Made by a program: the position numbers and the translations under genes. Of a stretch of 64,000 nucleotides of DNA, positions 28,629 through 60,796 are shown piece by piece (within the stretch, counting starts at the first letter, position 1; each line of letters opens with the position of its first letter). The notes under the pieces were generated by a model. It had not been told where the DNA came from. It saw only the letters and a list, made by a program, of their open reading frames with translations, and did not search any database. The DNA comes from a virus: positions 1 through 64,000 of the IMG/VR virus record IMGVR_UViG_3300036770_005682; one strand, 5' to 3'.

Positions 28629-28832
28629 GTGTCGTCTCGATTCTCTCGTCCCAAGAAGAACGTCAGCCAGAATAAGCCGCAAATAGGTTATTCTAAACCT
28701 GTAGACAATCAAAAAAAATCGTACAAGTATCACTGCATGGTAACGGGCGATAAGCGTGCTTTCCCATGTGGAGGATGCGTCAACCCTAAAGGTTGTTTAT
28801 CAAATTCGATGCAGTACAAGGAGACAAAGTAA
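28629..28832 (+). CDS. Small Cys-rich (possible Zn-binding) protein
   Basis: C-x10-C-x2-C-x5-C; stop overlaps the next ATG (TAATG). Confidence 0.55.
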   Translation: MSSRFSRPKKNVSQNKPQIGYSKPVDNQKKSYKYHCMVTGDKRAFPCGGCVNPKGCLSNSMQYKETK

Positions 28833-30458: not shown

Positions 30459-33400
30459 GTGCGCGATGATGAAATCAAACAAAAGCTAATTGGTGCAGCG
30501 TCACAAAAAGACGCAAAATTAGAAACAGCACCAAAATCGGCCGCTCAAGAGAAAAATAAAAACTCCAAAGAGCCAGAAAAAGACAAACCAGAAAAGCCAT
30601 CAAAGGCAAAATCTGAGTTTGAGCAGTTTCTTATCGATTGGGAACCTGGTGACCCACTGCCATTTTTCCCTCCTGGGAAAATATTAAGGCTTTGCCATCT
30701 AAGCAATAACCCGATGGTTACTGGTTCGGATTATTATTTCGACAACCCTAAAACAACAATCAAGCCTTATAGGCCTGGCCAAAAGTCTATAGAAGAAGAG
30801 TTTATAGAGGTAAAAAACCTTGGGCCGAAACTCAAAGAAGGCCTTTCCTCTCTTCTTGGTATGGTGGCGCGTTCGCGTGGCCTTTGGGTTGACGACAAAA
30901 ACAAACTACGTTGCCCTGCAGGTACTCCAAACGCAAACCAGTTCACCGACATAACTGGGAGCAACTGCTTTATCCCAACGCCAGCAACGGCAGCGCAATC
31001 TGGGGCAAGAGCAGCTAGAAGAGTTCTCGGCACGGCAGAGCAGATGGCTGCAGGAGTAGGACAGAGAGTAGATAGAAGCACGTCCGGTCGTGCTGCGACA
31101 GCGCAGCGGTGGACGACAGGAGATTTGGCATATCTGCAACAGGGCATGGATTTTGGCGGCAGAATGGGCATGCCCGGCAGCAGAGTATCCCCCAGTCAAA
31201 GGACGACGCGCGCCGGCAGGGTATCTCCTGCCACTGGAAGCTCAATTTACTATATTGGTCGGCGTGAGGCCATAGCTCGCGGGAAAGACCTGACACGTGC
31301 AGCACGCGACCTCAGCGATAGATACAAAGTTGGGGCACAAACACAAGCAGCGATACGTCTTCCCAATGGTCAGCTGGTAGGAAACGTTTTGAATAGAGCC
31401 GACTTTATGGCGGCCATGACGTACCTAATGCCAAACGTAGACCCTAACGAGATAGAGGAGTACTACAGCAACGCCATCCCTGGAACGCTCTCGTTGACGG
31501 ATAGAAGAAAGTACCAATCTGGATTTAAAGCGTTCTGGGAAGCTCACATTTTTGAAATGATTGAAAATGCAGAAGCATATAAATTAATCACAAAATTTGA
31601 GATGATGGACGACCTCAATACGGCTATTGAGATTTCAGTCGAACCCTTCGGCCCAAGCCCACTAAGCGGCGGACGAAGAGCAGGAATTGGCGCAACACAA
31701 ATGGCGACACAGGCAAACCTGATGGCCGAAGGCGGCGCACATGTTTCGTTCAAGGTAAGCCCATTCGGTATGTGGCAACAGATGAACGGCGTTGGTCGCA
31801 ACATGGACAGCGATGGGTCTGGGTGGCTTGACTCAATTGAAGGAAGAATGCATTACGTTGCGGTGCACGAAGCTGGGCACACAGTGGATTTTTACAACAA
31901 ACTCAAAGCTTTTGGTCTAGACCCCAATTCAATGCAAAGATACACAGCCCCTAGGCGTGTTGTATCTGTTGGCGGTTCGCCGACGGTTCAGCAAGATAAA
32001 TACAACGGCGCTTGGATTATTGATTGGGCAAATGTTACAAATCCCCAGAATAATCCATTCGTCGACGACATGATAGATGCCGCCAGAAGGTTAAAGAATA
32101 CTTCTTATACAGGTTCAAAATTTAGTGGCAGAAAAATAGACCTACAAAACGATTTGACAACGTTCTACGACAATTTGGCTTGGGCGTTTCAAAACAACAT
32201 TACTCATGATGTGGGCGACTTAGTAATTATGGCTGCTGCGGTGGGAGGGGAATACGCAACAGTCAATGGCGTCGAGACATCAGCAGAATTTTATGCATGG
32301 AGAAGATTGTTCGGCGAACTTAGGGGAAATGCGGCAGCAAGCAGAATGCCAATAGGCAGGGATATTCTCCAAGAGGGTCCTTTTGATTTAACCCCAAGCG
32401 ACATCGATTTACGCACAACAAATGCAAGAAACAGCCCTACCGCAAATCTTCTTACACATTTTGCCGCCGCTTGGGCAGTGCAAGAACGTGACCGGGCTAT
32501 GCAACCAGGTGGGGCCCTAGACCAAATTCAACAGCAGCTTCCACCTGGCGTAGGTTTGCCACAATCAATCATAGATAACTTTGAACAAAACGCTGCTGCG
32601 GATGCTGTCGCTAGATTGAATCAAGTTGGGCAATCATCATTTGGCGTCAGCCCAACGGGGTGGAACATATCTGGGCGCATGGGGAACATGCAGGGACCAA
32701 ACGACCGCCCGCAAACATTGCATGCTCGTAGAGTCAGGAACGCTGTTCGTTCGTACGACGCCAATAAGACAAGAGTAAAAACAAGCTTTAGCATCTCTGG
32801 ACGCATGGGGACACCAGACCCTGTAAAACCGCAAAGACCGCGAGAGCCAGATAATGGTCCATTCACTGGAAAGTTTCTTGATGTTCTTCGTGGCGCTTCC
32901 ACCTGGAAAGAGTTTGCAAGCAAATACCGCAAACAGACGGTTGTATTTTTTGACTACGAAACGACCGGATTTGGTGATGATGGGAACATGCCGGTTCAGA
33001 TAGGCGCGGTAAAAATGCGCGGCGGTAAAGTTGTAGAAAGATTTAACGTTTTTGTTAACCCCGGTATCCCACTTGGCGACTGGGCAAAAAAGAATTTGAA
33101 AAATGATAAAGGCGAGCCACTAACCGATGAGTGGCTAGCATCAAAAGCGGGAATGCGCCAGGCCCATGAACAGCTGCTTGAATTTTTTGGCGAAGATGCG
33201 CTGTTAGGTGGGCAATATACGCCATTTGACCTAGAAGTACTAGAGCGTATTCTCAAACAAGAAGGTATTGATTACAAACCAGCCGGTGTAATTGACTCAA
33301 AAGCGATGGCTGACGAACTACTTCCGCGATGGTCTCCCCAAAATCCCGATGGCCCAACAATGGTTGACCCTAAAACAGGAGAGAAAAAAGCATCAAACTC

Positions 33401-35600
33401 TCTTGGACCATTAGCCGAATATCTAGAGGTCGACCTCGGGGATGGCTGGCATACTGCAGACGCTGACTCTGAGGCATCAGCAATGATTATTGAGAAGATG
33501 CTAGATAGGGCAGCGTCTAAGCAAGACACATCAAAACGGCTATTGGACGTAGACCAAGTCCCACGAATTGTCCAGGAACGTCGCGCGAAATACGAGCGCG
33601 ACATGGCTGATTATCAAAAGGCAAAGGCAGAATACGACCAGCTTATTTCTGGCCGTATGGGTGTTGTGCAGTTTGAAACTGCTAATGGCTCTGTTTACAC
33701 AAGGCAAGCTGACGGCAGATTCCGTCGCAGAAAGAGCGCAGTGCTCGGCACGACCATAGAAGATTCTGACGTTGAGTCCACCTTTGACAACACCGTATTT
33801 GTTAATGACAATGACGCGTATGCAATTATGGCCAAAGGACAACGTGGCCGGATAGTAGACGACAGTGGGAATTTGATTGGTCGCATATATGACGACACTA
33901 ATCTAGATAGTTCTAAATTCATGTCTCTTCGTCGTGATGGAGACGATTTTGATACCGCTTATAGAAAAGCAGGCGGAACGATAAAAGATGAAGCAATCCC
34001 GGCAGCACGCATATACAGGGAACCACAGACCGGTTTAGCCCCAATTGAGTGGAACAACGCAGACAACAAGTACCACGTAGGAAGCAGTGTTTCGTCCGTG
34101 ACAACAGAGCCATCTACGTCTATATCTGGAAGAATGGGAAATCCTGAGCGCGCATCGAAAGCAAAGACCGCACAGGTAAAAGAAGTTTTGTCGACCACAA
34201 AAAGCTCTGTCGGAGCAAACATGAGCGACGAATACGTAGATAATTGGGAATCAATAGAACCGCGACTCAGTGGAGAATTGGGCATTAGAAAGCCACTCAA
34301 AAAGGCAGAAGCTAGAGCCCAAAGCAGCGAAGCAATGAGACGTTTTGGTTCAATGTTGCGAGACTCAATCGGCAACGAGAATAAACCGGCACAGCAGACT
34401 CCATACAGCCCTCTGTTTGCTGGCGTCGAATTAGATTTTATGGCTCACATTGGCTCAATGACTGATGAAGAAATTGAAAACGAATTAGTAGATGCAATGA
34501 CTGAGTTCCATGCTGGACTCGACCCACGCCCTAGGGTGCAAGTATGGCAGGGAGATTTGACACGCATACTGCAACACGGGTATAAAACGACACACAACAT
34601 CACCAGTGACCACAGTTCTAGCCCAATGCGTAAAACGTATGAAGCAGAAATTGGCATTCATCCTGATTTCCCAGACACGATGAGACCAGCTTCAGGATAC
34701 ATGGTTCATTCTGATTGGCTGAATGCTGAAGAAACTATTGCCTCTGCCGCAGTGGAGGCGCTCCCCGGAGCTGATGAAGAAACAAATTTCCCCGAATACA
34801 TGGATAGAAAAGGCATAGAAGACCACCGTGGTCCAGTTAGCGTATACGGAGGAGCGGAAATAATTCTTAGACCGGAGACATCAGGACGCACATACTACGG
34901 GTATGGAGACTCGTTGTCAATGAGATTCACGCCAGTGTCTATAAATTCCACTGACCCAGATGAAATAGTGCGCCCTATGGCCATGGGTGGGACAATAGCC
35001 GGCACAAATATGTTTGATTTGCTTTATGGCAAATGGAAGGGTGACTACTCGGCACTCAGGTATCAGCCCAATGGTAAGAGCGGGCGGCATTATTTCGAAT
35101 CGATGGTTGTCGGCGGATTTGACGCTGCAGACATAGAAGAAGTAGTTATCCCTAATTCTGGAGCCATCCCTGTTGGGGTTTTGTTTGAGCCGGACAACCT
35201 TCCCGAATCAAGAGGAAACATAACAGGCTCCGATTACGACGATATGGCCACAATCCCGGCATTCGCAAAAATGTCTGACGCACAGTATTGGATTGATAAC
35301 GCTGGCTCATCTGAAGAGCAGGCATCAGAAATAGTCAAGATGATAAATGACAAAAAGATGCTGACTGTTAGGGCCAACCCCCAGCTCGCCCGTGGACTAG
35401 CAGCCCAGAAAATTAAAGAGCGCCTGCTTGAAGCTGGCGCAAAACTGACAGTTAGAAACCAGCAGGGGATGGACTATTTTGACCCCCAAAGCTGGGTTGA
35501 CGACCTTAAGGCAAAGACATTAGAAGATGCTATAGAGATGGCTATGAGAAACAAGGTAATGAGGGCCATTAGCCAGGCAATGAAAGAAGCACAGCGATGA
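30459..35600 (+). CDS. Polyprotein A: HEXXH peptidase + DEDDh exonuclease + unknown domain + DUF3626-like domain, with 4 ISGRMG linkers
   Basis: VHEAGH..EYA..N..E..AE; FFDYETTG..FD..H.A.AD; RPASGY..YG....L...GDS..YFES. Confidence 0.75.
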   Translation: MRDDEIKQKLIGAASQKDAKLETAPKSAAQEKNKNSKEPEKDKPEKPSKAKSEFEQFLIDWEPGDPLPFFPPGKILRLCHLSNNPMVTGSDYYFDNPKTTIKPYRPGQKSIEEEFIEVKNLGPKLKEGLSSLLGMVARSRGLWVDDKNKLRCPAGTPNANQFTDITGSNCFIPTPATAAQSGARAARRVLGTAEQMAAGVGQRVDRSTSGRAATAQRWTTGDLAYLQQGMDFGGRMGMPGSRVSPSQRTTRAGRVSPATGSSIYYIGRREAIARGKDLTRAARDLSDRYKVGAQTQAAIRLPNGQLVGNVLNRADFMAAMTYLMPNVDPNEIEEYYSNAIPGTLSLTDRRKYQSGFKAFWEAHIFEMIENAEAYKLITKFEMMDDLNTAIEISVEPFGPSPLSGGRRAGIGATQMATQANLMAEGGAHVSFKVSPFGMWQQMNGVGRNMDSDGSGWLDSIEGRMHYVAVHEAGHTVDFYNKLKAFGLDPNSMQRYTAPRRVVSVGGSPTVQQDKYNGAWIIDWANVTNPQNNPFVDDMIDAARRLKNTSYTGSKFSGRKIDLQNDLTTFYDNLAWAFQNNITHDVGDLVIMAAAVGGEYATVNGVETSAEFYAWRRLFGELRGNAAASRMPIGRDILQEGPFDLTPSDIDLRTTNARNSPTANLLTHFAAAWAVQERDRAMQPGGALDQIQQQLPPGVGLPQSIIDNFEQNAAADAVARLNQVGQSSFGVSPTGWNISGRMGNMQGPNDRPQTLHARRVRNAVRSYDANKTRVKTSFSISGRMGTPDPVKPQRPREPDNGPFTGKFLDVLRGASTWKEFASKYRKQTVVFFDYETTGFGDDGNMPVQIGAVKMRGGKVVERFNVFVNPGIPLGDWAKKNLKNDKGEPLTDEWLASKAGMRQAHEQLLEFFGEDALLGGQYTPFDLEVLERILKQEGIDYKPAGVIDSKAMADELLPRWSPQNPDGPTMVDPKTGEKKASNSLGPLAEYLEVDLGDGWHTADADSEASAMIIEKMLDRAASKQDTSKRLLDVDQVPRIVQERRAKYERDMADYQKAKAEYDQLISGRMGVVQFETANGSVYTRQADGRFRRRKSAVLGTTIEDSDVESTFDNTVFVNDNDAYAIMAKGQRGRIVDDSGNLIGRIYDDTNLDSSKFMSLRRDGDDFDTAYRKAGGTIKDEAIPAARIYREPQTGLAPIEWNNADNKYHVGSSVSSVTTEPSTSISGRMGNPERASKAKTAQVKEVLSTTKSSVGANMSDEYVDNWESIEPRLSGELGIRKPLKKAEARAQSSEAMRRFGSMLRDSIGNENKPAQQTPYSPLFAGVELDFMAHIGSMTDEEIENELVDAMTEFHAGLDPRPRVQVWQGDLTRILQHGYKTTHNITSDHSSSPMRKTYEAEIGIHPDFPDTMRPASGYMVHSDWLNAEETIASAAVEALPGADEETNFPEYMDRKGIEDHRGPVSVYGGAEIILRPETSGRTYYGYGDSLSMRFTPVSINSTDPDEIVRPMAMGGTIAGTNMFDLLYGKWKGDYSALRYQPNGKSGRHYFESMVVGGFDAADIEEVVIPNSGAIPVGVLFEPDNLPESRGNITGSDYDDMATIPAFAKMSDAQYWIDNAGSSEEQASEIVKMINDKKMLTVRANPQLARGLAAQKIKERLLEAGAKLTVRNQQGMDYFDPQSWVDDLKAKTLEDAIEMAMRNKVMRAISQAMKEAQR

Positions 35601-35920
35601 AAAAGTCACTAGTTGGCAAAACTAGAGATGGCGGAAAGTTGTTTTTCGTGTCAGGAGGCCGCAGTACAGGGATATTCCAAATTGGCAGAACCATGACAGA
35701 AATCAACTTCTGGGATTTTGTTGACAAGAGGCCTGACCTAGAAGAGATGATGATAACGCCAATGCAGAAAAGGCTTTGGTCAAGAAATATCTCAGACCCT
35801 CAGTGGGTTGCGCAGTTCATGCCGGCGCATTGGAGAAAGCGGGAAGATGAAAACCCATACAACCAAAAAGTTAGCCAGGCATTAGATACAATAAGAACAA
35901 CGACAGATTTGCTGTTCTAG
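35597..35920 (+). CDS. Small protein coupled to polyprotein A (possible immunity/partner)
   Basis: ATGA overlap with upstream stop. Confidence 0.55.
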   Translation: MKKSLVGKTRDGGKLFFVSGGRSTGIFQIGRTMTEINFWDFVDKRPDLEEMMITPMQKRLWSRNISDPQWVAQFMPAHWRKREDENPYNQKVSQALDTIRTTTDLLF

Positions 35921-35948
35921 TATTACGAATGTCGCATAAGGACCGCCA

Positions 35949-36593
35949 GTGGACAACTTTGAAAAATTCCTGAGTAATAAAATAATAATTGTAGACGAGG
36001 AAAAGGCCGGAGGCCCAGCTGGCGCTGTGATACCTCAGGAAAACATCACAGGTGACGTACTTAAAGGACGTGGTCCACGCAGGGGAAATCTAGAAAGACT
36101 ACTCAGGTATTGGCGTCCAATAATGAAAAAACCCGGAGGATTCCGCCGTTGCCGCGTGATACTTGCGGACCATCCGGAGCTGTACCCTCTTGAAAACATC
36201 TGTGCCTGGCTGCACCATGAGACAACAGGATTATGGCCGAACGAGGGTTGTCACCATCCAGGTATGAAAAACTGCCGCAAAAAGTTGAAAAACGTCACCA
36301 ATGGCAGTATATGGACAGACAAAGATTTTGATGAAAGAATAAGGAAACTTACATCCAGGGGGACCAGAAAGAGTCTACAATTTTCTGGAGTAGTTGTTCC
36401 CGATGAGCCCTTCACACCAGTCGTAACAAACGAAGATTACGACCATGCCTTCAAGGTTCTGCAAGACTTTATGGACATGGAGCCAGATTTCTGCAAAACA
36501 TTGATGGATGAGTCGAACTGGGAACATTTGCACGGCATGCAGTCCACCGAACTGAAACATATTGCGCCAGATGAAGACAGTATCTCTTTCTAA
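35949..36593 (+). CDS. Head-associated protein with GN.E.L.RYW..PG.F.RC..CA.LH..G.WP motif
   Basis: Motif resembles modules seen in actinophage capsid-maturation regions. Confidence 0.55.
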   Translation: MDNFEKFLSNKIIIVDEEKAGGPAGAVIPQENITGDVLKGRGPRRGNLERLLRYWRPIMKKPGGFRRCRVILADHPELYPLENICAWLHHETTGLWPNEGCHHPGMKNCRKKLKNVTNGSIWTDKDFDERIRKLTSRGTRKSLQFSGVVVPDEPFTPVVTNEDYDHAFKVLQDFMDMEPDFCKTLMDESNWEHLHGMQSTELKHIAPDEDSISF

Positions 36594-38628
36594 TTGCTGC
36601 GATGAAAAATCGCTGACACCAATTGTACAAACACGTCATGTAACGCCAGAGTTGGCGCTTACACACGTAAACGCATTCACCCAGCCATTGCCCAAAGATG
36701 GCAATTATAAAAATGCTGTAATGTACAAGTGTGCTATGCAGCGTCGAGGCGGACGAGTAAATCTAGAGGTAAAAGTCGGTTCGGTGACATCGACTAGTCC
36801 TGTTTTGCAGGGGCTTCAATCTGTCGGCTCAATGATTATCCCCGGAGATACGGCACCACTCAGAAGCCCTCTTCGCTCAGGGCTGGCTAGGGCCATAACG
36901 CCTGGCGGCGGCAGAGGAATTAATCCGTTTGCCTATGGTAAACCCAATCGCGGATACAGATGTCCAGAGGGTTACCAATATGGTGGACGCTTTACAGATT
37001 CCAGATTCTCAACATGTGGAAAACAATTGTTTGACCTTCCTGGGATAATTGGAGCAGCAATCGGCACAGCAATTAGACGTTCTGCCGCCGGTGTCGCCAA
37101 TTTTGAACCAAGCGGACGTCGGGTTGGGGCCCTATCCGTCTCTGGTGACATTATCCAAAGTCGCGCACCGCAAATTCCTAAAGTTTCAGCATTAAATAAG
37201 CGCGACAGAAACGCTAATATCGCATCTATTGTTGCTGCTATGGCCGGTGTTGCCGAACCATACAGAAGAATGGTCCGTCGTGATGGTTTCGTTCTTGAGC
37301 CAGTAGTAAGCAACGCAGTACTAAGAACAATCCCAGACAACAGGGATATGGAAGGTGCAACATTTGTTCAGACTGCCCTGGATAGAGCAGTTATAGGGAA
37401 AGATGAACTTGGGTTGCTATCCAATACTGGTGTCCAAAAGCTTGTTTATGTTTTGCCTGGTGGCTCGACGCTAAATATAGAAAAAGCGCGCCCATTAACA
37501 GTTGGCGAACGACGCAAATTGGGCAAGACGGTTAACGTAGCCATTAATGCAGAAAACAATTCTGACCCAGCATCTAGGTTGCGTTTCGTTGCAGAGCAGA
37601 TGGGCGATGCTATTGCCTACAGCGAGTCCTTTAACGACATAAAGGACCCCAATGCAATAATTACAGTGACGTTGCCTGGCACAAAGCGGAAAACTCAACT
37701 GAAGAGATGGGTTTACGAATCGTTTTATAAGCGCAAGCCAGACGTTCCAACCCCTTCAGAAACTGAAATAACAGAAGGCGATTCAGTAGGGCCAAGCGAA
37801 AAAATCGACAACCTTTCGGGGGCAGTGAGGCACCTCAATGCTGGAGGCTCACTAGAAAACATATCCAGCTCATTGCGGGTTGAAGCACTGAGGCGGAGCA
37901 GGCTTTACAAGAGTGGAAAACTCAAAGAGGGCGTAATCCTTCATGAGCGCGCAGATGGGCAAACCGTATTCGAAATACGTCCGAAGCGAGATTTTGAACA
38001 TATTGGGGCTTCGGTTGCTTCTGAGGTGCAACGTTCGTTAGGCCTGAGTGCGCCAAAAGTAAGATTGTCTGGCTCTGGAAATAGGAGAACCTATCTTATA
38101 GGGGAAGCGCAGGATACGCCAATTGCCGGTTCACAAAATAGAGCAAGCGGTTTAGAAAATGTTGCTGTGGAGGATTTGGTTGGACTAGCTGTCGCAGACT
38201 GGCTTTTGGACACTCACGGCAGAACTCCGGCAAACATTTCTCCTATAAATATATCTGGAGCCATGAGGGCGGTTGCATCGATTAACCCGATGTCTGGAGG
38301 AATATCTGCAAGAGGCAATAACAGGCAACGTTTCGACATAGACATGAACGATTTTTTCGGACAAGAATTGCGCGAAATGTACCGTCGCAATTTCGAAAAA
38401 CTAAAACTTGAGCAGAGGCGCAAGGCTCTCAACATGATTGCAACATATATAGAAAGAGCTCAAAATATAGATTTCCCAGAATTGCGCAAAAGGCTGAGTC
38501 TCGACGGTGAAATGTCCGAAGCAGAAAAGCGACACCTTTCTATTATTGAAACACTGTTCAATAGAAGACTAGAAACACTGAGAACATCCAGAGCCGCATT
38601 CATGTCTGCACTAGGATTGCGGCAGTAA
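36562..38628 (+). CDS. Large protein B with RCP motif and C-terminal degenerate HipA/PI3-PI4-kinase-like domain
   Basis: EH.GA.VAS.V.RSLGL.AP.V and LAVADWLLDTHGRTPANI. Confidence 0.6.
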   Translation: MRQMKTVSLSNCCDEKSLTPIVQTRHVTPELALTHVNAFTQPLPKDGNYKNAVMYKCAMQRRGGRVNLEVKVGSVTSTSPVLQGLQSVGSMIIPGDTAPLRSPLRSGLARAITPGGGRGINPFAYGKPNRGYRCPEGYQYGGRFTDSRFSTCGKQLFDLPGIIGAAIGTAIRRSAAGVANFEPSGRRVGALSVSGDIIQSRAPQIPKVSALNKRDRNANIASIVAAMAGVAEPYRRMVRRDGFVLEPVVSNAVLRTIPDNRDMEGATFVQTALDRAVIGKDELGLLSNTGVQKLVYVLPGGSTLNIEKARPLTVGERRKLGKTVNVAINAENNSDPASRLRFVAEQMGDAIAYSESFNDIKDPNAIITVTLPGTKRKTQLKRWVYESFYKRKPDVPTPSETEITEGDSVGPSEKIDNLSGAVRHLNAGGSLENISSSLRVEALRRSRLYKSGKLKEGVILHERADGQTVFEIRPKRDFEHIGASVASEVQRSLGLSAPKVRLSGSGNRRTYLIGEAQDTPIAGSQNRASGLENVAVEDLVGLAVADWLLDTHGRTPANISPINISGAMRAVASINPMSGGISARGNNRQRFDIDMNDFFGQELREMYRRNFEKLKLEQRRKALNMIATYIERAQNIDFPELRKRLSLDGEMSEAEKRHLSIIETLFNRRLETLRTSRAAFMSALGLRQ

Positions 38629-46007: not shown

Positions 46008-46393
46008 AAAAAATAGACAAATCAGAGCTGAGTCGTGATGAATTTGCAATGTATTCGCAAAGCAAATTAAAACTCACACAAGCAGTTGAGGAGCTTATCA
46101 ACCTGCTTGGGTATCCGCCATTCGGATTTGATAAAACCGGCAAGTCAAGCGAAATGTATGCCGAAGTCATGGCTGACATAAATGAAACTTTAAACAACAT
46201 TGATGAGGAAGATTTCATTACAGATAGATACGTGCCACTAGCCGAAATAAAGAAAAAATACGCAACAGAAATATCTCAAGCCAAGCGGCTGAGAGATGCA
46301 CATCCAAACATTGGCGCTGCGATTAAAGCATGGTTCGAAGATAATAAATTACAATTAGACGAGTCGATTGCATACCAATATGGCATTGGCTGA
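46004..46393 (+). CDS. Small acidic protein coupled to polyprotein C
   Basis: ATGA overlap; 129 aa. Confidence 0.55.
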   Translation: MKKIDKSELSRDEFAMYSQSKLKLTQAVEELINLLGYPPFGFDKTGKSSEMYAEVMADINETLNNIDEEDFITDRYVPLAEIKKKYATEISQAKRLRDAHPNIGAAIKAWFEDNKLQLDESIAYQYGIG

Positions 46394-46395
46394 AC

Positions 46396-50190: not shown

Positions 50191-50411
50191 ACGAACTATT
50201 TGCAGAGGGTATTGGAGGGGGTGCCAAAATGTATAAAACCCATACTACATTTGTTGGAGATAGCCCTATCTACTTCGGGTACATCCTGAAAAATGGACAA
50301 AAAGGTGGAATAATTAATTTGTCTTCCGTTGTTGCCTCCAACCCTTCCTGGAAGGTTGTGGACGAATTTGCTACTACTAACGAACCTCTAGAAAACCCTA
50401 GAAATCAATGA
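50187..50411 (+). CDS. Small protein coupled to polyprotein D
   Basis: ATGA overlaps at both ends; 74 aa. Confidence 0.55.
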   Translation: MNELFAEGIGGGAKMYKTHTTFVGDSPIYFGYILKNGQKGGIINLSSVVASNPSWKVVDEFATTNEPLENPRNQ

Positions 50412-53400: not shown

Positions 53401-56400
53401 TGAATTTGGTTCACCCGAAGAGCTCGGCGTCACGGATGACCCATCAACATGGGCTCTACATCCGGACAACGTGCAGGATGATGGTGTAACCCCAATTGAG
53501 TTAGATGAACTTGAGCAGCTCATACTTAAATATGCACCGCGTAAATTTCAAGCCGACTTACTTGAAATGCTCAAGCCAAGTGAATGGACAGACCCTCATA
53601 GTGGCCACATTGACCAGCGCTATGTTGACCTGCCTCCAGAAATGATTGATTATTTTGTTGCTCAGGCTATGGGCACAATGCCACCTATGCCATCCGGTTC
53701 AGGAAATTTACCCACACCGAATATGGGCGGCGTCCAAGGAGATGGAGTAGGAATTTCAGACCCTGGCGGTCCGCGTCTGCGTCGCGGTATACCGTTTATA
53801 CCCAGAAACATAAACTGGGATTCAGCCTTGCGAATGTTCAAACGAATTATCGACAGACAGGGAACTTCTGCATCTGCTCCAGGTTCGTATCGCACCGCAT
53901 CGCTACGTTATGACCCAGCACTTGGTGTATATGAAGACTGGGGACCACTTCAGCTGCAAAACCAGTTTGTTGAAGCGGCTAAAGCAGCAAGAGAACTATA
54001 TGTATCGGGCACTGGGCAAGACTCACGGAAAGCAAGAGAGCAGGTATGGAACCTTCTCCAAGCGGGCAGAACCCCAGAAGAAATAGGACATGAGCTAATA
54101 ATCTTTGGAGCAGACCAGCCAGATACAAATAGGCCGCCACAGCCACTGGATGTATCTGACCTTGTGAAAGCCGCAGCGACAGCGTATGCAGTTGAAAACA
54201 ATCTCCCAGTTGCTGATGTTTCCAAAATGCTTAATGCAAATGCTAAAGCGTTCAATGCTGACGCTACACGCCAAGAAACTCTCCGCCGCTCACAACTGGA
54301 AAGGCTTCGTGCTGATTTAGATAGGCTTCTCAGTGGTCAAAGCATGGACCAAATTATCAAGTCCATTGACGGTTTGATTGAAGAAACAGAACGTAAGAAA
54401 TGGTTTGCTGACCAGGCCTACAGAATTGAGCGCGGCCATGACGCGCGACTACGGAAAGCTATTCTGGACCTAGCGGAAATGTACCCATTGCCTACGGCAC
54501 GCCGCCAAATATTTATGGAGCCAGACGGCTCTATCACTGGTACACCTTCGCGAAACTCAAGGACGTTGTACCAAGAGCCATACACGGGCGAAATATCGGC
54601 TGACGCAAATCTTGGCTGGCCATTAGCTTTTGATGAAGGTTATGACCCCACAAAAATTACTAGGGCTAGGCAGGCTAACAGAATTTACAGATGGTGGCGT
54701 CAGAACTGGGGCTATGTTGACCGCGATGAAAATGGTGAAATAATTCGTCAGTATGTTGGCCCGCTCCAGGGAACGTTAACTGCTCACCAAACTCACGCCA
54801 GAAAATATGGCAACGCGGGTCTATCTGGCACAACAGCATACGCAACCAAAACAGCTGATGCTCGAGTTAGGCAGCTAAAAGAAGTACAAAAACTTCTCAG
54901 TGAAGCCCGCCGCGAAGGCCGCAACTTTAACATCAGTGGATACATGCGTAATGCTGGTCCAAATCTTTATGAGTCATATTCACGCAATGCTGCGCGCTCA
55001 CTAGTTGCTGGGCGTAAAAATAAAAAATCTGCATCAATGCTTCTTGGTTTTGATTCAGAAAACATGCCTGTGACAAGAGCTATGAGGATTGCCTTCACTG
55101 GTGGTTCAGGAAAATTTAGTGATGCCGAAAATATGCATTCTTTTGCATCAATAATGAATCCAGAAAACATCGATTACTTTAATCACCTTTCTCCGGTAGA
55201 AAAAGATTATTTTAGGTCTCTTTATTCTGACGCTGAATTCGTTGTAGCCGTACCTCGAGACGCTGCAGTTTCGGCCAGTCGTTCAATTCGCGGGAAAGAC
55301 GGACTTACACCAGATGAAAAGCTAAGTCAGGCTTTCTATAAAGCAATGTCAGATACACGCCCAACTATTTCTGGACAGATGGGACTTAAGAGAAATCTGT
55401 CAAAAGCAAGGGGAATGGCAAGACGCAACCCTGAGTTGTGGCAGCGCCGCTACATGACTGCGCGTAATAGCTTCAGGATGGCGACGCCATTTAGACGGAC
55501 CACATTGCAAAACTATGACCTAGAACTCAGGCAGGTTGATGACAGCGTGTTTGGGCCAATTTCGGGTCTCTACCTTGTTGATAGAGCAACGGGAAATGTA
55601 ATCGATGGCCCATACAAATCAACGGAATTGATGTCGGCTGTGGATGCAGGCCGTGGCGCCATGAGGAAGGTCAAGGAACAAAATTATCCTCGCCCATGGG
55701 AGCAAATGCCGGAAATACAGAAAGCAATTGCATATGGCGTATCCAACGAAATGCGCGATTTCCTGACTCTCGATGCATATAAGTTGAGCGACATACGCAG
55801 TACGGTAAATGAGAGAGCTCTATCCTTGGATAAGGGCATTCCACAAGAAGCAGCAGATACCGCCGTATTTAGTCGTGACCCAGATACTAGCGACCTAATG
55901 GTTCTTATGATTCAGCGTGAATGGGGACCACATAAGGACGACACGGGCGCATGGGTACTGCCTGGTGGTTTCTCCGACCCAGGTGAAACATCACTAGAAA
56001 CAGCCATGAGAGAGCTCGCAGAAGAGACTGGGATAAAACTTCCAGCAGAGTCTTCCGACCCACAATGGTGGACGACAGAAGGTGCTAAAGCTTTCCGCCT
56101 CAAGCAAATAGGCACAATAGAAGCTCCAGACTGGGATGTGCGATTTACCAAAGGTGTAAAAGTTGGAGGCGCAGCATTGTTTGTATCTCCGGACATAGCG
56201 TTCTCGGCGGGGGATGATGCACGCAGGGCACAATGGATTAGTGTTCGCGACATTGCTGATGGCAAGATACCAGTTGGCTTCGGGCATATAGCTTGGATAA
56301 AGAACGCTTTGGGCCTAGAAAAAGATGACCCAGACGAACTTGATAGCGACCTTACGGACATTGGCTCAAAGCTGGAAAGAATAGAGCGCGCGACTAGAGC

Positions 56401-59400
56401 AAGAAACAAAGAGCTCATAGAAATATCGAATGACTGGCGTAAAAAACTCAACGCAAGTCGCGATAAAGATAATCAAATACCGCTATTCGATGAAAAAAAT
56501 CTTGGCTCCTACTCATCTTGGGAGTTAATACCATCCGATGACCTGATGTACATGGGTGCATTGTCCAAGCTCAAAGTGACAGGAAAACCGCATTCAGATG
56601 CTGACGTAAAAGCAGAAGTGGAGCGAACACGTGAAGTTCGCTTAGGCAGGGTTGGAACGAATTTTGGTCCATCCATATCTGGCCAAATGGGCAATATCGG
56701 ACCGGTCGACATCTACAAAATGCACATATCCGGCAAGACCTCAAACGACATATCTGAATCACTTCCCAGTACAGAAGCAATGCTTAGAGCAACACTGGCT
56801 CTTGGTATGCCGCTCAGTAAAGAGAGCCACAATATTAATCCCCAGGATGAACGAATTTTTCTTTCATCTGCTGTTCGTGGAGAGAATATTGCCGACATCG
56901 CGAGAAGAAACAACATGTCAGTGTCGGAAGCAAACAGTGTCGTCCAGAATTTCGCAAAAATGCGTGAATCTACGGAACCGGCAATCAATAAATCTTTCCG
57001 CAAAGCAATAAAACAAGACAAAAAACTTTCTGGAGCAGAAAAACAAGCCCTTACTCGTCGCCTTAACGGCGCAACAGTCAAAGAAGCGGCCGACTTCCTC
57101 GGTGTAAAGGAAGATGCTTATATACGGCGAGAGGCAAAACTGTTAAACGCCATTCGCGAATCGAATCCTAAAATGTTCAAATCGAACGGAGCCTGGTCAG
57201 ATAACCCACGCGCCCTGGCAGTAGACCAGGAAATATTTATGCGCTTTGTTCATGATGGCCAGCCAGCCTCACGTATAGCAGGCAACATGGGCATGACCGA
57301 AAAGCTTGTGAACAACATTGTCAAGCGCTACGCAAGATGGAGAGACTCCAATGCGCCAATTGAAACAAGCTCTATTAAAAACGCATTGCTCCGTCATTCG
57401 GATTCTTTAACTCCTGGCGAAAATATATTAATGAGTCGCATAGCAGATGGTGAGTCTGTATATGACTTTGCGAAGCGGACTAGAATGCCACGTAAAAGCG
57501 CTGAGCGTATGTATAACTCAGCAATGCTCAAGCTTCATATTGAGTCCGGTGTTGCTCCGAGCTCCAGGGTATTTAGCGCAAACATTTTCAAGGCTGCTCC
57601 AAAGCGTTGGATTTCGCCAATTATGCCAGCAGATATTTTGGCCAAAAAACCAAAAATATCTGGGCGCATGAGTAATAACGACAAAGCTATTTCAACCATC
57701 AAAGAATCTAATGCGTTTAACGAAACGGAACGTGGATTTGTTTCTGCGCCAATGAATGTTTTACGTGAAATGGCTATTGATATACGTCAGGAACTTCGCG
57801 ACCAAGTTGCAGATTTGTCACAAACTTCAGCAGAAATGCATCCGGTGCTCGGAGGGCATGAAGGCGTAAAGAAAATGGCGACACTGGGTGCATATATATC
57901 CAGGACACTAGAAGAGTCTCGTATTTCGGCATTGCTAGACGAATACAAGAGCGCAAAAACAAAATTCATATCGCGCGAACGAAGAGAGTCGGTCGAAAAG
58001 CAGGCAATACTTGACGCAACAAAAAAGCTTTCGGAAGAGCTATGGCTTAAAAAGCAATTTATGGATTTGGCGTCAAACATCTACGACGCTTATGAAAGAG
58101 CATCTTGGCCATGGTTGAAATGGGACAAGTCAAGCCCTGAGTGGAAACGACATTTAGGTGTCTTTGAAACAATGGAAATGTACAAAATCGACACTCCTAG
58201 CGGCAGAAGAAAATACATCAATGATGGCTATTACATGCCGCTGAACCCACGAGAAATGGAAGCATTCCTTGATGCTGTTAATACAAACAACGGCATTACT
58301 GGAAGGATGTCCAACCCGCGCCAATGGGCACGCTCTAGAGACCTATATGAAATCCTTGGTGTTCCAGATACTGCAAGCCCTGAAGATTTAAAGAAAGCTT
58401 TTAGGACAAAATCCAGGGAACTGCATCCAGACGTTAATAAGCGTGCTGACGCAGATGAGCAGTTCAAAGAGCTTGGTTTTGCTTGGGAAACTCTAAGTAA
58501 TTCGAGCCTTAAAGCTCAATACGACTCCTGGAGAACACGCAATGCATCTGGAGCTGCTGCTGACGGCGAAGTAGATAACTTTGAAGAAGATGCCAACTTT
58601 AAAGTCGACGACAACATGTACATTACGGACGAGCGTGGCCGACTATGGCCGCGTCATAATGCAAATAGGGACGACTGGCCGACAGTTCCATTTACAGAAA
58701 ATACAGTGTTCCCGCAGCGCAAATGGGCAGAAAAAGAGTTTGACGAATGGTCGGATTGGACAAGCCACAAAATACAACCATCGAGACCAGCCGGAAGTGC
58801 CCTATGGGGAGAGCGTGGCCCTGGCGACGACATAAGAGATGGTATCGAAACTGACTTTGGTGGAGGAGGCGGTGGGTTCCCAGAGGGCTTCATGTATCGA
58901 GAATCACCAGAGGAATTCGAGAGGCGACTAAGAGATGAATTTGAGAAGCGGCTAAGGGATGAGGGTGCTCAGTTTTGGGATGAGCGGACAATGGGCCCTC
59001 CCCCACGGCCTGATGATTTTCCTGGACCCCCTGGCTTCCCGTCACCTGAAGGGTCTATCAGTGGCAGGATGAGCAATTTCGCCCCACTAGATGACACTAC
59101 GAGGCAGCGTCTCGGTATAGGGGACCTTCCAAGTCTTTACGACCAGCAACAGCTAACTGCGCAATACCCCAAAGACACCGCCATGTTTTATGCTGCTAAG
59201 CCGGGAGAACCAGCAATAGAGGTAACAACAACATTTGGCGGGAAACTAAACCTGGCGCAGCATAGATACGACAACGTATATAGGCCAATTATTGACGCAA
59301 TGATAAATGCAGTCCGCCAAAATAATCGTGGACGTAAAAGGTTCATATCGGTAGGTGGCCCTGCCGGTTCGGGTAAAACAACTGACAGAAAAACTGGCGC

Positions 59401-60796
59401 TCACGGCATACCAACAGTGGAAAATGCCCTCCATGTTGATGCTGACGAGATAAAAACTCTAATACCTGAAGCCAGGGCACTGCATGCCGCAGGAAACCCA
59501 CAATGGGCTGGAGCAGTGCATGAAGAATCAAGAATCATTGCTGACCTTGCTCTTCAAGAAGCAATAGCAAATGGTTTAGACGTTGTATACGACTCAACGG
59601 GTCAGTACAACTCTGGTTTTGGAACGTTGCAGGCTGCACGCAATGCTGGATACGACATTGTTATGCACTACAACACCGCAGAGCCAGACGCCCTTGCCGC
59701 AGCAATTGAAAGCCGCTCGCAGACAGATTCGCGTCGCCTACCATCTGGCTTTAACAATGCTGTTATGCAACGCAATAAGACAATTATGCCTAGTGTTGCT
59801 AAAGCCGCAGATGAGTTCTATTTGTGGGATTCATCTGACATAAAATCACGCAAATTGCTGGCCCAAAAGCAAACTCCACAGTCAATGCTTCAGATAATGG
59901 ACCCGAACGCATACGTTTATGGAAGCTTCGATGAAGCAGGCCAAGCAATAACCAAGGGTGGCAGGCCAACTGCCCGCCTTAACCAGTACAGATATGCGGC
60001 AGAGAGCCCTGAAGGACGAGCAATTCAGGCTTTTGAAAATGGTTCAACAATTGACCAAATATCTGAAACAATGCCCGATATGAAGCGCGACAGAATATTT
60101 GATGTTGTCACCGGAGGGGTAATTGACCCATCACTCCAATACAGGCCGCCAGTATCACCATCACAAAGGCCTGCAATCAACCCAGAAAAGAAGATTGATG
60201 ACTTCGTATCTGATGACAACCTTGAGAATATATGGAACAGCCTGGAAGAAGCACAACAACAAATCGTAAGAAATGTTCTCAAAAAACAACCAGGCGCTAT
60301 GGACGAGTTTGATGATTCGGGCCTACCGATGGACATAATTATCTGGGCCGCGCAAAACAATATCAGTGGGAGAATGGGCGCTGTCTACGATAGAGATAGA
60401 TATAGCGCCGATGATGTGAATAATGCAATTCTTGAGGTTTATGGTCGTGGCCTACAGGCTGCAGAAATGCTCGAAACGCTCAAGAGCGAGTACGACATTT
60501 CAATGGCTCGGGCAGACCTAACAGCACGAATCACCAGACTGAGAAAAGCTGGCAAATTAGACACTTATCGTCTTCCGAATAAAAAGAAAACAGCAAGACG
60601 AATAAAGAAAAGCGCAACTCAAAAATTTGTTGACAAGCGAGATAAGCAAATAGTTCGTTTAGCCAAAACAAGACCCAACCTAACAGCGAACCAGATAGCT
60701 CAAATAATCAACAACATGCCTATTCCTCCGGGAGTAGCAGTGCAGCCAATGAGTGCTAGTTCCGTGTCGCGGATAGTAAACAGCAAAGGCAAATAA
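50408..60796 (+). CDS. Polyprotein E (3462 aa): DUF5872-like, Nudix, HTH repeats, J-domain, zeta-toxin-like kinase, HTH; 9 ISG[R/Q/Y]M-type linkers
   Basis: NYTKP.LR...GQWSARKAQ; GGF..PGE....A.REL.EETG; YEILGV...HPD; GGPAGSGKT..DADEIK..HEES. Confidence 0.8.
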   Translation: MNENNDLQFDEKDILGAPRMVRVTDPDVFSDPDSARVAARRLGCIGIRRYLNRSGGESWMPCTNESDYRKYSGIGVSGRRFRRQQLEREIRQITGRGKLAKKTIDSAVETKASKANNYTKPELRERLKQRIMAGSDGGAPGQWSARKAQMLAQAYKKAGGGYKTGGKSKTQRSLSTWTKQNWRTSDGKKARRGNYTRRYLPAKAWSKLTPAQRAATNKKKIEGSKQGEQFVPNTAAARSARKRSVRGAKHSAFYELLEIKSIEGLIEVKALPRRAARRTLQTPGALKPRLNSMGRDLNPATARNADKDPYVLEGIPTINRGRGVLDPTPGGKPSRWVPRVRKAPSKPEVAPEAKPARVLQRQAERLPKPPQTQRRESSFDWLPSDSDTWTEENKRRLFGLHKESGFSYSEFAKRNGLFADDVRESVETIKNKRKSRLNAFKKNHPKLMSVIGSFGAVRDEAMEAVADGKVKDWPSVVSWAFKDPELRRQRLSDRAVNDLFNSVSNGLDPDGKSDTVLGFIPSKTKPGKSVKTFAKRGALPPDFTSRFTTRRTAVAPARSITSIPERAIRRPERRIQRISRDIERTAAAYERLDAISGRMTSISGRMATPPGPDSSWSNQQKAQWKAEQWRKRFLFDEALNSARVNLSPELQAHIAKYPDTATAARAIMDMSDKDLDALFKAHNDALKGANITIKPPRRDELPLLPSEVAEAAQIKRPLVRAFLDEYRKMAPNGTLSRLDVDTMSNEDVEEMFNRYILPEMVDPTRLDAAGVVDVAQRISQPGQENSPLRLLDNLAYMASDDMMSLEARRRILEERLNAGIAAGTMTPAQQQATQNALDAIDMELAKLVADYEAGQPLDTSIPFIPENIPDPRKMPLWAGGRRALDFNDPVTAEDYVMFLLENDDVGFHPEWGPITRQEWNNWDEDIEQRIQRAVEVHYEGGELEAEDAMNALTAEYQQWYNVGIEAGWIEGQEEEEPQPERPIRDEFGVLDEDWVWNTEFGSPEELGVTDDPSTWALHPDNVQDDGVTPIELDELEQLILKYAPRKFQADLLEMLKPSEWTDPHSGHIDQRYVDLPPEMIDYFVAQAMGTMPPMPSGSGNLPTPNMGGVQGDGVGISDPGGPRLRRGIPFIPRNINWDSALRMFKRIIDRQGTSASAPGSYRTASLRYDPALGVYEDWGPLQLQNQFVEAAKAARELYVSGTGQDSRKAREQVWNLLQAGRTPEEIGHELIIFGADQPDTNRPPQPLDVSDLVKAAATAYAVENNLPVADVSKMLNANAKAFNADATRQETLRRSQLERLRADLDRLLSGQSMDQIIKSIDGLIEETERKKWFADQAYRIERGHDARLRKAILDLAEMYPLPTARRQIFMEPDGSITGTPSRNSRTLYQEPYTGEISADANLGWPLAFDEGYDPTKITRARQANRIYRWWRQNWGYVDRDENGEIIRQYVGPLQGTLTAHQTHARKYGNAGLSGTTAYATKTADARVRQLKEVQKLLSEARREGRNFNISGYMRNAGPNLYESYSRNAARSLVAGRKNKKSASMLLGFDSENMPVTRAMRIAFTGGSGKFSDAENMHSFASIMNPENIDYFNHLSPVEKDYFRSLYSDAEFVVAVPRDAAVSASRSIRGKDGLTPDEKLSQAFYKAMSDTRPTISGQMGLKRNLSKARGMARRNPELWQRRYMTARNSFRMATPFRRTTLQNYDLELRQVDDSVFGPISGLYLVDRATGNVIDGPYKSTELMSAVDAGRGAMRKVKEQNYPRPWEQMPEIQKAIAYGVSNEMRDFLTLDAYKLSDIRSTVNERALSLDKGIPQEAADTAVFSRDPDTSDLMVLMIQREWGPHKDDTGAWVLPGGFSDPGETSLETAMRELAEETGIKLPAESSDPQWWTTEGAKAFRLKQIGTIEAPDWDVRFTKGVKVGGAALFVSPDIAFSAGDDARRAQWISVRDIADGKIPVGFGHIAWIKNALGLEKDDPDELDSDLTDIGSKLERIERATRARNKELIEISNDWRKKLNASRDKDNQIPLFDEKNLGSYSSWELIPSDDLMYMGALSKLKVTGKPHSDADVKAEVERTREVRLGRVGTNFGPSISGQMGNIGPVDIYKMHISGKTSNDISESLPSTEAMLRATLALGMPLSKESHNINPQDERIFLSSAVRGENIADIARRNNMSVSEANSVVQNFAKMRESTEPAINKSFRKAIKQDKKLSGAEKQALTRRLNGATVKEAADFLGVKEDAYIRREAKLLNAIRESNPKMFKSNGAWSDNPRALAVDQEIFMRFVHDGQPASRIAGNMGMTEKLVNNIVKRYARWRDSNAPIETSSIKNALLRHSDSLTPGENILMSRIADGESVYDFAKRTRMPRKSAERMYNSAMLKLHIESGVAPSSRVFSANIFKAAPKRWISPIMPADILAKKPKISGRMSNNDKAISTIKESNAFNETERGFVSAPMNVLREMAIDIRQELRDQVADLSQTSAEMHPVLGGHEGVKKMATLGAYISRTLEESRISALLDEYKSAKTKFISRERRESVEKQAILDATKKLSEELWLKKQFMDLASNIYDAYERASWPWLKWDKSSPEWKRHLGVFETMEMYKIDTPSGRRKYINDGYYMPLNPREMEAFLDAVNTNNGITGRMSNPRQWARSRDLYEILGVPDTASPEDLKKAFRTKSRELHPDVNKRADADEQFKELGFAWETLSNSSLKAQYDSWRTRNASGAAADGEVDNFEEDANFKVDDNMYITDERGRLWPRHNANRDDWPTVPFTENTVFPQRKWAEKEFDEWSDWTSHKIQPSRPAGSALWGERGPGDDIRDGIETDFGGGGGGFPEGFMYRESPEEFERRLRDEFEKRLRDEGAQFWDERTMGPPPRPDDFPGPPGFPSPEGSISGRMSNFAPLDDTTRQRLGIGDLPSLYDQQQLTAQYPKDTAMFYAAKPGEPAIEVTTTFGGKLNLAQHRYDNVYRPIIDAMINAVRQNNRGRKRFISVGGPAGSGKTTDRKTGAHGIPTVENALHVDADEIKTLIPEARALHAAGNPQWAGAVHEESRIIADLALQEAIANGLDVVYDSTGQYNSGFGTLQAARNAGYDIVMHYNTAEPDALAAAIESRSQTDSRRLPSGFNNAVMQRNKTIMPSVAKAADEFYLWDSSDIKSRKLLAQKQTPQSMLQIMDPNAYVYGSFDEAGQAITKGGRPTARLNQYRYAAESPEGRAIQAFENGSTIDQISETMPDMKRDRIFDVVTGGVIDPSLQYRPPVSPSQRPAINPEKKIDDFVSDDNLENIWNSLEEAQQQIVRNVLKKQPGAMDEFDDSGLPMDIIIWAAQNNISGRMGAVYDRDRYSADDVNNAILEVYGRGLQAAEMLETLKSEYDISMARADLTARITRLRKAGKLDTYRLPNKKKTARRIKKSATQKFVDKRDKQIVRLAKTRPNLTANQIAQIINNMPIPPGVAVQPMSASSVSRIVNSKGK

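Follow-up and report, generated by a model that had tools for sequence, protein, structure and literature searches.

Why should one short peptide be repeated again and again in the largest genes of a virus? The question is raised by positions 1 to 64,000 of the IMG/VR virus record IMGVR_UViG_3300036770_005682, a 64,000-nucleotide stretch that is referred to below as the window. In its head module, between the genes for the prohead protease and the major capsid protein, lie four giant open reading frames (ORFs), named G1 to G4, in which the pentapeptide ISGRM and its near copies recur. As judged by comparison of sequences, this motif is real, is selected as a peptide, sits in linkers, keeps its position, varies between lineages and marks the points at which modules are exchanged. 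It is almost certainly a selected boundary element that is read in trans, and it is probably a cleavage site. The enzyme that cuts there could well be the S78 (HK97 gp4-type) prohead protease encoded in the same module, an assignment to which we give a little less than an even chance. The best reading of the giants is that they are polyvalent polyproteins, that is, chains of independently folding modules.

A recurrent peptide between the modules of giant ORFs

A six-frame scan recovered 13 exact copies of ISGRM, four near copies (ISGYM, ITGRM and ISGQM twice) and an ASGRMG in the protease ORF at 27227, each at the place given by the original prediction, which had been made from the letters alone (Table 1). 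The four giant ORFs together amount to 8,898 amino acids (aa) and hold 17 sites. From their composition, 0.0061 copies of ISGRM are expected, against 13 observed, and in 500 residue shuffles the commonest 5-mer was present in two copies (448 shuffles) or three (52 shuffles). The anticipated excess over a shuffled background was thereby borne out, and it extends to the giants of related phages, as described below. When the pattern was relaxed to x[ST]G[RQKY]M and applied to open frames of at least 60 aa over the whole genome (137,811 bp), 21 hits were obtained, 18 of which fall in the giants and one each in the protease ORF, in a 1698-aa ORF of the minus strand and in a 97-aa frame at genome position 115406. 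Outside the giants, the original prediction had noted the copy in the protease ORF, and it had missed two strings. One is ISGKM at 10037, in the 1698-aa ORF (7416-12512, minus strand), which is compatible with chance; the other is NISGAM at 38251, in a 688-aa ORF, which aligns to non-motif sequence in most lineages and is partly conserved but not linker-like.

Selection acts on the peptide, since the codons vary at each degenerate position. In the 13 exact copies, Ile is written ATA (7), ATC (3) or ATT (3), Ser TCT (8), AGT (2), TCA, TCG or TCC (1 each) and Arg CGC (6), CGT (2), AGA (2), AGG (2) or CGA (1), while every GGN codon is used for Gly. For the same reason, an origin of the motif in a DNA repeat or a recombination signal was rejected. 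The earlier view that the peptide and not a DNA repeat is under selection is upheld both by this codon variation and by the island of identity found in orthologues (see below). Equally well founded was the remark that a small residue (G, S, A or T) follows the Met, as it does in 16 of the 17 copies, the exception being an ISGYM followed by Arg.

The sites divide G1 into segments of 741, 42, 284, 159 and 487 aa, and G3 into segments of 107, 168, 466 and 523 aa. Pfam recognizes exonuclease, NUDIX, helix-turn-helix (HTH), DnaJ and Zeta_toxin domains, each lying between two sites as had been proposed, whereas a further 'HFDWWMFP module' on the same list has no significant Pfam match. The 42-aa mini-segment of G1 (aa 742-783, 32682-32807), which is bounded by a site at either end, contains an S-L-H-A-x-R-V string that is conserved in relatives.

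The expectation that the motifs would fall in disordered linkers is in agreement with structure prediction. An AlphaFold2 model of G1 aa 700-1300 was built from a 13-sequence alignment. Its exonuclease domain is confident, with means of the predicted local distance difference test (pLDDT) of 71-96 over 10-residue blocks. Three of the four sites lie wholly in segments with pLDDT<50, and the fourth is at a fraying helix end beside the exonuclease domain (block mean 51). Over 171 distinct sites, the five residues on either side of the motif are poor in hydrophobic residues (fractions of 0.15 and 0.12, against a background of 0.27). A model of G4 aa 2400-3462, from a 3-sequence alignment, was too poor for domains to be discerned (mean pLDDT 41) and is not relied on; its four sites are at local pLDDT minima, three of them in coil.

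Conservation, module exchange and lineage versions

Relatives in IMG/VR were collected through the protease, with at least 586 related stretches among the 599 candidates listed, and through the capsid protein, with 341 of 345 candidates related. The loci examined (here L with a number) were the best 80 of the protease set, the best 80 of the capsid-protein set and four with G3 homologues. In the 95 distinct ORFs of at least 1000 aa from the relatives' loci (185,591 aa), [ILV][STV]GxM occurs 194 times, against 10.9 expected. ORFs of this size from the protease-locus set and the genome itself (90,682 aa) contain 119 copies of [ILV][ST]GxM, against 4.1 expected, and only four of the reversed pattern. 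In the protease-locus set, ORFs of 150-999 aa on both strands contain 36 copies against 13.8 expected, an excess that may come from protease ORFs and truncated giants. At the capsid-protein loci, plus-strand ORFs of at least 800 aa hold 80 copies (6.1 expected; reversed pattern, 4), and those of 150-799 aa (165,462 aa) hold 5, against 10.4 expected. As a consensus, 105 distinct sites give G/S/N at position -1, followed by I, V or L in falling order of frequency, S more often than T, G, R/K/A/S, M, S/G/A and S/T/N.

The motif is also better conserved than its surroundings. Identity between close orthologues is 0.92 in the motif and 0.54-0.69 in the flanks (17 site comparisons), and between distant orthologues 0.60 and 0.24-0.50 (21 site comparisons). 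When the giants were cut at the motif and each segment was searched against the relatives, the same module boundary was found to bear a motif in orthologues of 28-87% identity, and the same modules were found elsewhere in other giants, still adjoining a motif. The alignment of the exonuclease module (13 sequences) illustrates this arrangement: a G-x-M-type site lies upstream in 11 sequences and downstream in nine, RLSSG flanks the module in two, the ORF ends with the module in two, and past the downstream site unrelated modules follow in the different sequences. Likewise, four sites of G4 align with sites of L083 and L085, and after aa 3319 the C-terminal module of G4 is unrelated to theirs. 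The G4 homologue of L083, of 3677 aa, is split in the otherwise near-identical L084 into frames of 1495 and 2207 aa, which reflects either a frameshift or a difference in assembly.

When recurrent k-mers were sought without bias in the giants of relatives, ISG[RK]M emerged as the version of the closest relatives, and different versions emerged in other lineages: ITGAM eight times in L104, G-[VIL]-V-G-x-M nine times in L019 (with VVGRM among its forms), G-P-[VI]-G-x-M (GPVGxM) in L015, L022 and L111, and (R/G)LSSG, a class without Met. At least three sites of the [ILV] type are present in 31 of the 95 giants, of the P type in three and of the LSSG class in 19. A concerted change of many dispersed copies is what is expected of sites that are read by a single trans-acting partner. 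Giants without the known motif classes in L131 (a 2770-aa ORF) and in L079 and L082 (ORFs of 2456-2480 aa) carry other recurrent short strings (STRS nine times, [IV]-[RQ]-G-M-P-S-V-E and RADFG repeats), which might be further site classes or repeats.

Candidate enzymes and competing explanations

On the reading that we prefer, the giants would be made as four chains and incorporated into the prohead, as is suggested by their position in the head module, by the protease fusions of relatives and by the fusion of portal and MuF. The string [G/S/N]-[I/V/L]-[S/T]-G-x-M-[G/S/A], displayed in exposed linkers, would be what a protease encoded by the phage recognizes. The S78 enzyme would cut the chains inside the prohead, the motif mimicking the capsid-protein junction K|S-I-G-x-M, and about 20 products would be released (five from G1, two from G2, four from G3 and nine or ten from G4). 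The freed modules would then travel with the DNA into the actinobacterial host. The original prediction had spoken of virion-packaged polyproteins cut into effectors. The part of it that stands is the selected linker bracketing the modules, as seen in the boundaries of orthologues and in exchange at the motif; cleavage is the best explanation of this pattern, and we infer it together with its enzyme and bond and with packaging and ejection.

The case for the S78 protease is built on its own gene and on the capsid protein. In the protease ORF, the S78 domain (aa 30-175) is followed by DUF6321 (aa 197-268) and a long C-terminal part, and H70, S134 and H166, which we take by analogy to be the catalytic residues, are invariant in 21 aligned protease domains. 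A copy of the motif, NPASGRMGGLA at aa 325, lies between the protease/DUF6321 part and the C-terminal part. A matching NP-x-[STI]-G-[RK]-M-G copy is found in 12 of the 68 distinct protease ORFs listed for relatives (10 by the scan pattern and two as NPSSGRMG), many of which carry the motif once more in their Pro-rich C-terminal region. ORFs of 3190, 2947 and 3024 aa begin with the S78 domain in G001, G002 and G003, three genomes that are complete or nearly so, and these ORFs are themselves studded with the motif of their lineage, with nine copies of the GPVGxM type in G001 or four of LSSG. The junction between the delta domain and the N-arm of the capsid protein reads F-K-S-I-G-E-M-F here and K-[ST]-[ILV]-G-x-[ML]-F in the clade; of 61 distinct capsid proteins, 42 have [ST][ILV]G.M, and 56 have this form when L is allowed in place of M. 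The capsid protein of HK97 is cut at K103/S104, with L105 next (PMC10275583), and the cut in this clade would therefore be K|S-I-G-x-M. With G third and M fifth, the linker motif would by this analogy be a P1'-P5' mimic of the capsid junction. Immediately upstream, the capsid protein has Q-L-[ST]-S-R-E-I-K at 17 of 17 loci of the LSSG class, compared with three of 11 loci of the G-x-M class. A complex prediction of the S78 domain with a 44-aa linker containing ISGRMG scored 0.00 and is evidence neither way.

The candidate scissile bonds are the one just before Ile, which would be HK97-like, R|M, which would suit the S1' pocket of a zincin, and M|G. The original prediction had chosen R|M, a choice that is not favoured over the others: (R)LSSG has no Met, and the capsid junction K|S-I-G-x-M suggests that the cut could fall just ahead of the motif. 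ORFs that end in the motif were considered as a clue to the bond and set aside, with only scattered and unconserved cases.

Several findings weigh against this reading. Its domain is near-constant, with 68-98% identity among the 21 aligned relatives and 72-82% in the LSSG and GPVGxM genomes, while ISGRM and LSSG differ radically, which would be unexpected if S78 alone set the motif. The resemblance to the capsid junction was noticed post hoc, and the order of S and I is swapped relative to ISGRM; the lineage correlations rest on about three phylogenetic groups and are non-independent; and in 42 of the 95 giants of relatives none of the three motif classes reaches three copies. The type of embedded zincin, moreover, tracks the class of motif. 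In a profile search, the HExxH module of G1 (the A3 type) was found wherever the giants of a protease locus carry [ILV][STV]GxM (16 of 16 loci), compared with none of 10 other loci; the complete genomes G004 and G005 have it, and G001, G002 and G003 lack it. The LSSG genomes G002 and G003 have instead an MPTase-PolyVal domain (PF18818, E ~1e-43) inside the protease-fused ORF, a family that is absent from G001, G004, G005 and the present genome. The two zincin types are thus split by motif class while S78 barely changes. The cutter might then be the metallopeptidase-like HExxH module embedded in the polyprotein (G1 aa ~380-700), with S78 cutting the capsid protein only, an alternative that we regard as unlikely but serious. 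Its residues H91, E92, G94 and H95 (HE.GH) are invariant in 11 of 11 orthologues, it opens G1 and has a copy of the motif at its end, and zincins usually prefer a hydrophobic P1' residue, which would suit the invariant Met or Ile. Processing of polyvalent proteins by zincin-like metallopeptidases (MPTases) was, in addition, predicted by Iyer et al. (PMC5512222). The module has, however, no significant match among Pfam families or in the PDB, searched with the single sequence and a profile; its sole PDB hit, a GDSL lipase (E 0.063), is not meaningful, and a likeness to Pro-Pro endopeptidase/ATLF in the Atlas (score 0.92) is a weak lead, so that its peptidase activity is putative. The genome G001 has 17 G-x-M sites (nine and eight in its two largest ORFs) yet neither the A3 module nor PF18818, and only other HExxH strings in a 1759-aa ORF. 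The co-occurrence of zincin and motif is confounded by shared ancestry, and an embedded zincin would account neither for the copies of the motif in the S78 ORF nor for the junction-like register.

The remaining explanations dispense with a phage protease. The motif could stay uncut and act as a docking or spacer short linear motif, for example as a handle for the scaffold, the capsid interior, portal-MuF or a chaperone. Its location in linkers, its island of conservation and its lineage consensus suit any short linear motif that is recognized in trans, and the virion RNA polymerase of phage N4 is packaged unprocessed, according to Iyer et al. (PMC5512222). Docking is nonetheless improbable in our judgement, as it fails to explain a copy at nearly every boundary, including tandem doublets 7 aa apart, the ORF-terminal modules without a motif, and the copy in the protease ORF between the protease and C-terminal parts. 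Activation of the effectors in the cell, by an actinobacterial host protease that cuts only after ejection, would be compatible with the linker evidence and with the identity of the phage as an actinophage, although nothing specific speaks for it. That the consensus shifts from one phage lineage to a close relative points to a partner encoded by the phage and not to a conserved host enzyme, and we know of no host protease with such a specificity; we would give this possibility very little weight. The invariant ATG could, finally, be an internal translation start from which the modules are also made separately: in the G-x-M classes the Met never varies, and 16 of 17 copies continue with a small residue, as natural N-termini do. 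Peptide-level selection on Ile/Val/Leu, Ser/Thr and Gly with free codon choice, the lack of a consistent Shine-Dalgarno-like sequence upstream of the sites and an LSSG class entirely without Met make this idea hardly tenable.

The protease ORF has some further peculiarities. Two copies of an identical 51-aa proline-rich peptide occupy aa 560-610 (27932-28084) and aa 621-671 (28115-28267), and their DNA differs at 31 of 153 positions, all of them synonymous; this argues for strong selection on the peptide or for recoding that avoids recombination. Tandem Repeats Finder returned nothing on this ORF, while a separate repeat search detected the 51-aa repeat. DUF6321 contains a highly conserved FFTNPSGPM (26993-27007, aa 247-251; 28 loci), which fits the relaxed pattern P-[ST]-G-x-M and lies about 75 aa upstream of the NP-x-SG-x-MG site; that it is a site or a pseudo-substrate is speculation. 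In the LSSG-class loci L175 and L176 (G002 and G003), the S78 protease, the MPTase-PolyVal zincin and further modules share one ORF of about 3000 aa, and DUF6321 has an ORF of its own, of 293 aa, at a distance of about 24 kb.

Head-module setting, known systems and significance

The viral record to which the window belongs, as its first 64 kb, has 137,811 bp, 49% G+C and a 127-bp terminal overlap; IMG/VR rates it 100% complete, in the class with direct terminal repeats. Outside the window, at genome positions 67661-67861, 82298-82495 and 110073-110264, lie three genes of the WhiB family, each of which passes the Pfam cut-off; WhiB serves as a marker for recognizing phages of Actinobacteria (COBRA paper, PMC10914622), and the three genes point to an actinobacterial host. 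The interval from the protease to the capsid-protein gene is the usual place of a scaffold gene and here holds about 30 kb of cargo-like coding sequence (Table 1).

Table 1. Motif copies, modules and head-module genes of the window, in window coordinates
Feature	Coordinates	Strand	Remarks
Portal protein, C-terminal MuF domain, 761 aa	23882..26167	+	Pfam Phage_portal E 2.1e-51; Phage_Mu_F E 8.6e-07, aa 670-756
Prohead protease ORF, 789 aa	26255..28624	+	Peptidase_S78 E 4.6e-11; DUF6321 E 6e-30
ASGRM(G)	27227..27241	+	Protease ORF aa 325-329
Head-module ORF with PepSY, 481 aa, conserved	28793..30238	+	Pfam PepSY E 4.3e-07; homologues in 65 loci
Giant ORF G1, 1713 aa	30459..35600	+	HExxH module and DEDDh-type exonuclease
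HExxH module, G1, candidate metallopeptidase	31596..32558	+	HEAGH at aa 470, nt 31866
ISGRM	32667..32681	+	G1 aa 737; ends HExxH module; conserved in L005, L037, L011
ISGRM	32793..32807	+	G1 aa 779; aligned in 11/13 sequences; pLDDT<50 segment
Exonuclease domain, G1 aa 829-1009	32943..33485	+	Pfam RNase_T E 1e-09; phrog_192 E 7.8e-24; between sites 779 and 1063
ISGRM	33645..33659	+	G1 aa 1063
ISGRM	34122..34136	+	G1 aa 1222
Head-module ORF, 214 aa, conserved	35949..36593	+	Matches inside protease ORFs of L025, L029, L041
Head-module ORF, 688 aa, conserved	36562..38628	+	Carries NISGAM at nt 38251
Giant ORF G2, 2459 aa	38628..46007	+	One site; without known domains
ISGRM	41226..41240	+	G2 aa 867; same place in L083 (aa 869), L085 (aa 808)
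Giant ORF G3, 1264 aa	46396..50190	+	Weak DUF3626 match, aa 1020-1195
ISGRM	46702..46716	+	G3 aa 103
ISGRM	47206..47220	+	G3 aa 271
ISGRM	48604..48618	+	G3 aa 737
Giant ORF G4, 3462 aa	50408..60796	+	Nine sites; NUDIX, HTH, J-domain, zeta-toxin-like kinase modules
ISGRM	52190..52204	+	G4 aa 595; first of tandem pair; pair also in L083 (aa 606, 613)
ISGRM	52211..52225	+	G4 aa 602; tandem pair 7 aa apart
ISGYM	54932..54946	+	G4 aa 1509
ISGQM	55367..55381	+	G4 aa 1654
NUDIX, G4 aa 1819-1883	55862..56056	+	Pfam E 3.2e-12; between sites 1654 and 2090
ISGQM	56675..56689	+	G4 aa 2090
HTH (HTH_23), G4	between sites 2090 and 2417	+	Pfam
ISGRM	57656..57670	+	G4 aa 2417
ITGRM	58295..58309	+	G4 aa 2630; J-domain begins 11 residues on
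DnaJ (J) domain, G4 aa 2645-2706	58340..58525	+	Pfam E 2e-18; between sites 2630 and 2884
ISGRM	59057..59071	+	G4 aa 2884
Zeta-toxin-like P-loop kinase, G4 aa 2972-3131	59321..59800	+	Pfam Zeta_toxin E 1.9e-20; between sites 2884 and 3319
ISGRM (NISGRMG)	60362..60376	+	G4 aa 3319; downstream module unlike that of relatives
HK97-fold major capsid protein, 463 aa	61070..62461	+	Pfam Phage_capsid E 1.5e-44

By their capsid protein (~48% identity), the nearest cultured relatives are Gordonia phages of the genus Bendigovirus and Brevibacterium phage Cantare. These have separate small genes between portal and protease (RNA ligase, ADP-ribosyltransferase and HTH protein), and no enrichment of the motif was found in Gordonia phage Gray and in Cantare. 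A tblastn search of G2 against 50,697 phage records gave zero matches. The 214-aa ORF is joined to the protease ORF in some relatives. The PepSY ORF, named after what Pfam describes as a peptidase propeptide domain, also has an acidic stretch, and its homologues span all motif classes; its product may serve as a scaffold or regulate the protease. A role as the specific partner of the HExxH module was rejected, since its homologues include lineages without that module. Short elements are shared near the N-termini of the giants: W-x-D...RCP-x-GTPN-x-x-QFT is common to G1 (aa ~140-175) and G2 (aa ~180-215), and NPATAR-x-ADKD...PTIN-x-GRGV-x-DPTPGG to G3 (aa 56-101) and G4 (aa 285-341), the latter element being also found after the protease part of the fused polyproteins of L015 and L022. 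They are candidates for capsid-targeting or assembly elements.

Several known systems resemble parts of this arrangement. Polyvalent proteins were described by Iyer et al. in 2017 (PMC5512222) as multidomain phage proteins, with processing by embedded peptidases predicted and an analogy drawn to the polyproteins of RNA viruses; assemblin-like peptidases are there said to be always C-terminal. The giants share with them the combination of unrelated domains in one polypeptide (2-15 by the criterion of that paper; NUDIX, HTH_23, DnaJ and Zeta_toxin in G4, HExxH and RNase_T in G1), and they resemble them in a candidate zincin-like HExxH module, in a MuF domain encoded nearby and in the predicted delivery with the DNA. 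As for the hub domains of polyvalent proteins, PF18818 is present in G002 and G003 and absent here, the HE.GH module has no family match, and MuF is on the portal. The giants differ in that no recurrent linker or cleavage motif is mentioned in the text of PMC5512222 as distinct from its supplementary lists (the word 'linker' occurs 0 times).

In T4-like and giant phages, prohead proteases process proteins inside the head that are later ejected. That of phage SPN3US (gp245) is T4 gp21-like rather than S78. It resembles the system proposed here in being a head protease with a short consensus and several sites per protein, cutting ejection proteins at several A-X-E sites into products that are ejected (PMC10052503). 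It differs in that cleavage occurs after Glu and, besides self-cleavage, every cut identified yields an N-terminal propeptide, whereas up to nine domain-delimiting sites per ORF are present here. The motif of T4/phiKZ/SPN3US type ([LI]-x-E or A-x-E) is not seen, the consensus [ILV][ST]GxM[GSA] having no Glu. We know of no polyprotein-type substrates in HK97. That phage has the same S78 protease family and capsid fold, and the clade junction lies at its cut (PMC10275583); the specificity of S78 is poorly defined, and a literature search gave no consensus. With the polyproteins of RNA viruses the giants share one ORF for many products, a short conserved site and a virus-encoded protease, and the operational layout of a viral polyprotein is found here, with 17 sites in four ORFs bracketing Pfam domains and S78 and HExxH encoded in the same block. 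Unlike them, this is a tailed double-stranded DNA phage in which processing would take place in the capsid and would concern cargo and not a replication complex, with unrelated proteases. Jamet and colleagues are said to have described in 2017 MuF polymorphic toxins of temperate phages, in which a head MuF domain is linked with toxin-like effectors that are thought to be injected. The layout of an N-terminal MuF and a C-terminal toxin is not found here, where MuF ends the portal and the zeta-like module is in G4, without MuF.

The earlier statement that no such phage system had been described is right for the linker motif, which is absent from the literature found by searches for ISGRM, phage polyproteins, polyvalent processing since 2018 and freshwater actinophages in texts other than supplementary files; the general concept, on the other hand, is already published. 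What is new is a defined, lineage-variable site that punctuates cassette-like modules, and its link to the S78 head module.

The processing predicted in 2017 lacked defined sites, and the peptide described here marks nearly every boundary in dozens of sampled giants, so that a general prediction becomes directly testable. The phages concerned belong to an abundant uncultivated actinophage group related to hundreds of viral contigs, and the motif provides a rule for parsing giant 'hypothetical' ORFs into units, most of which, including the whole of G2, have no known fold. Tentatively, and with somewhat more doubt than confidence in the picture as a whole, a large uncultivated clade of WhiB-encoding actinophages may carry about 9,000 codons of cargo in swappable cassettes, cut by the maturation protease at mimics of the capsid junction, with sites that drift in concert. 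If this is true, the protease that matures the capsid can also process polyproteins, and cassettes bounded by cleavage sites would be a unit of recombination in phage cargo. These phages would then offer a model from nature for filling capsids with proteins of choice, and a programmable, protease-defined cargo system in tailed phages.

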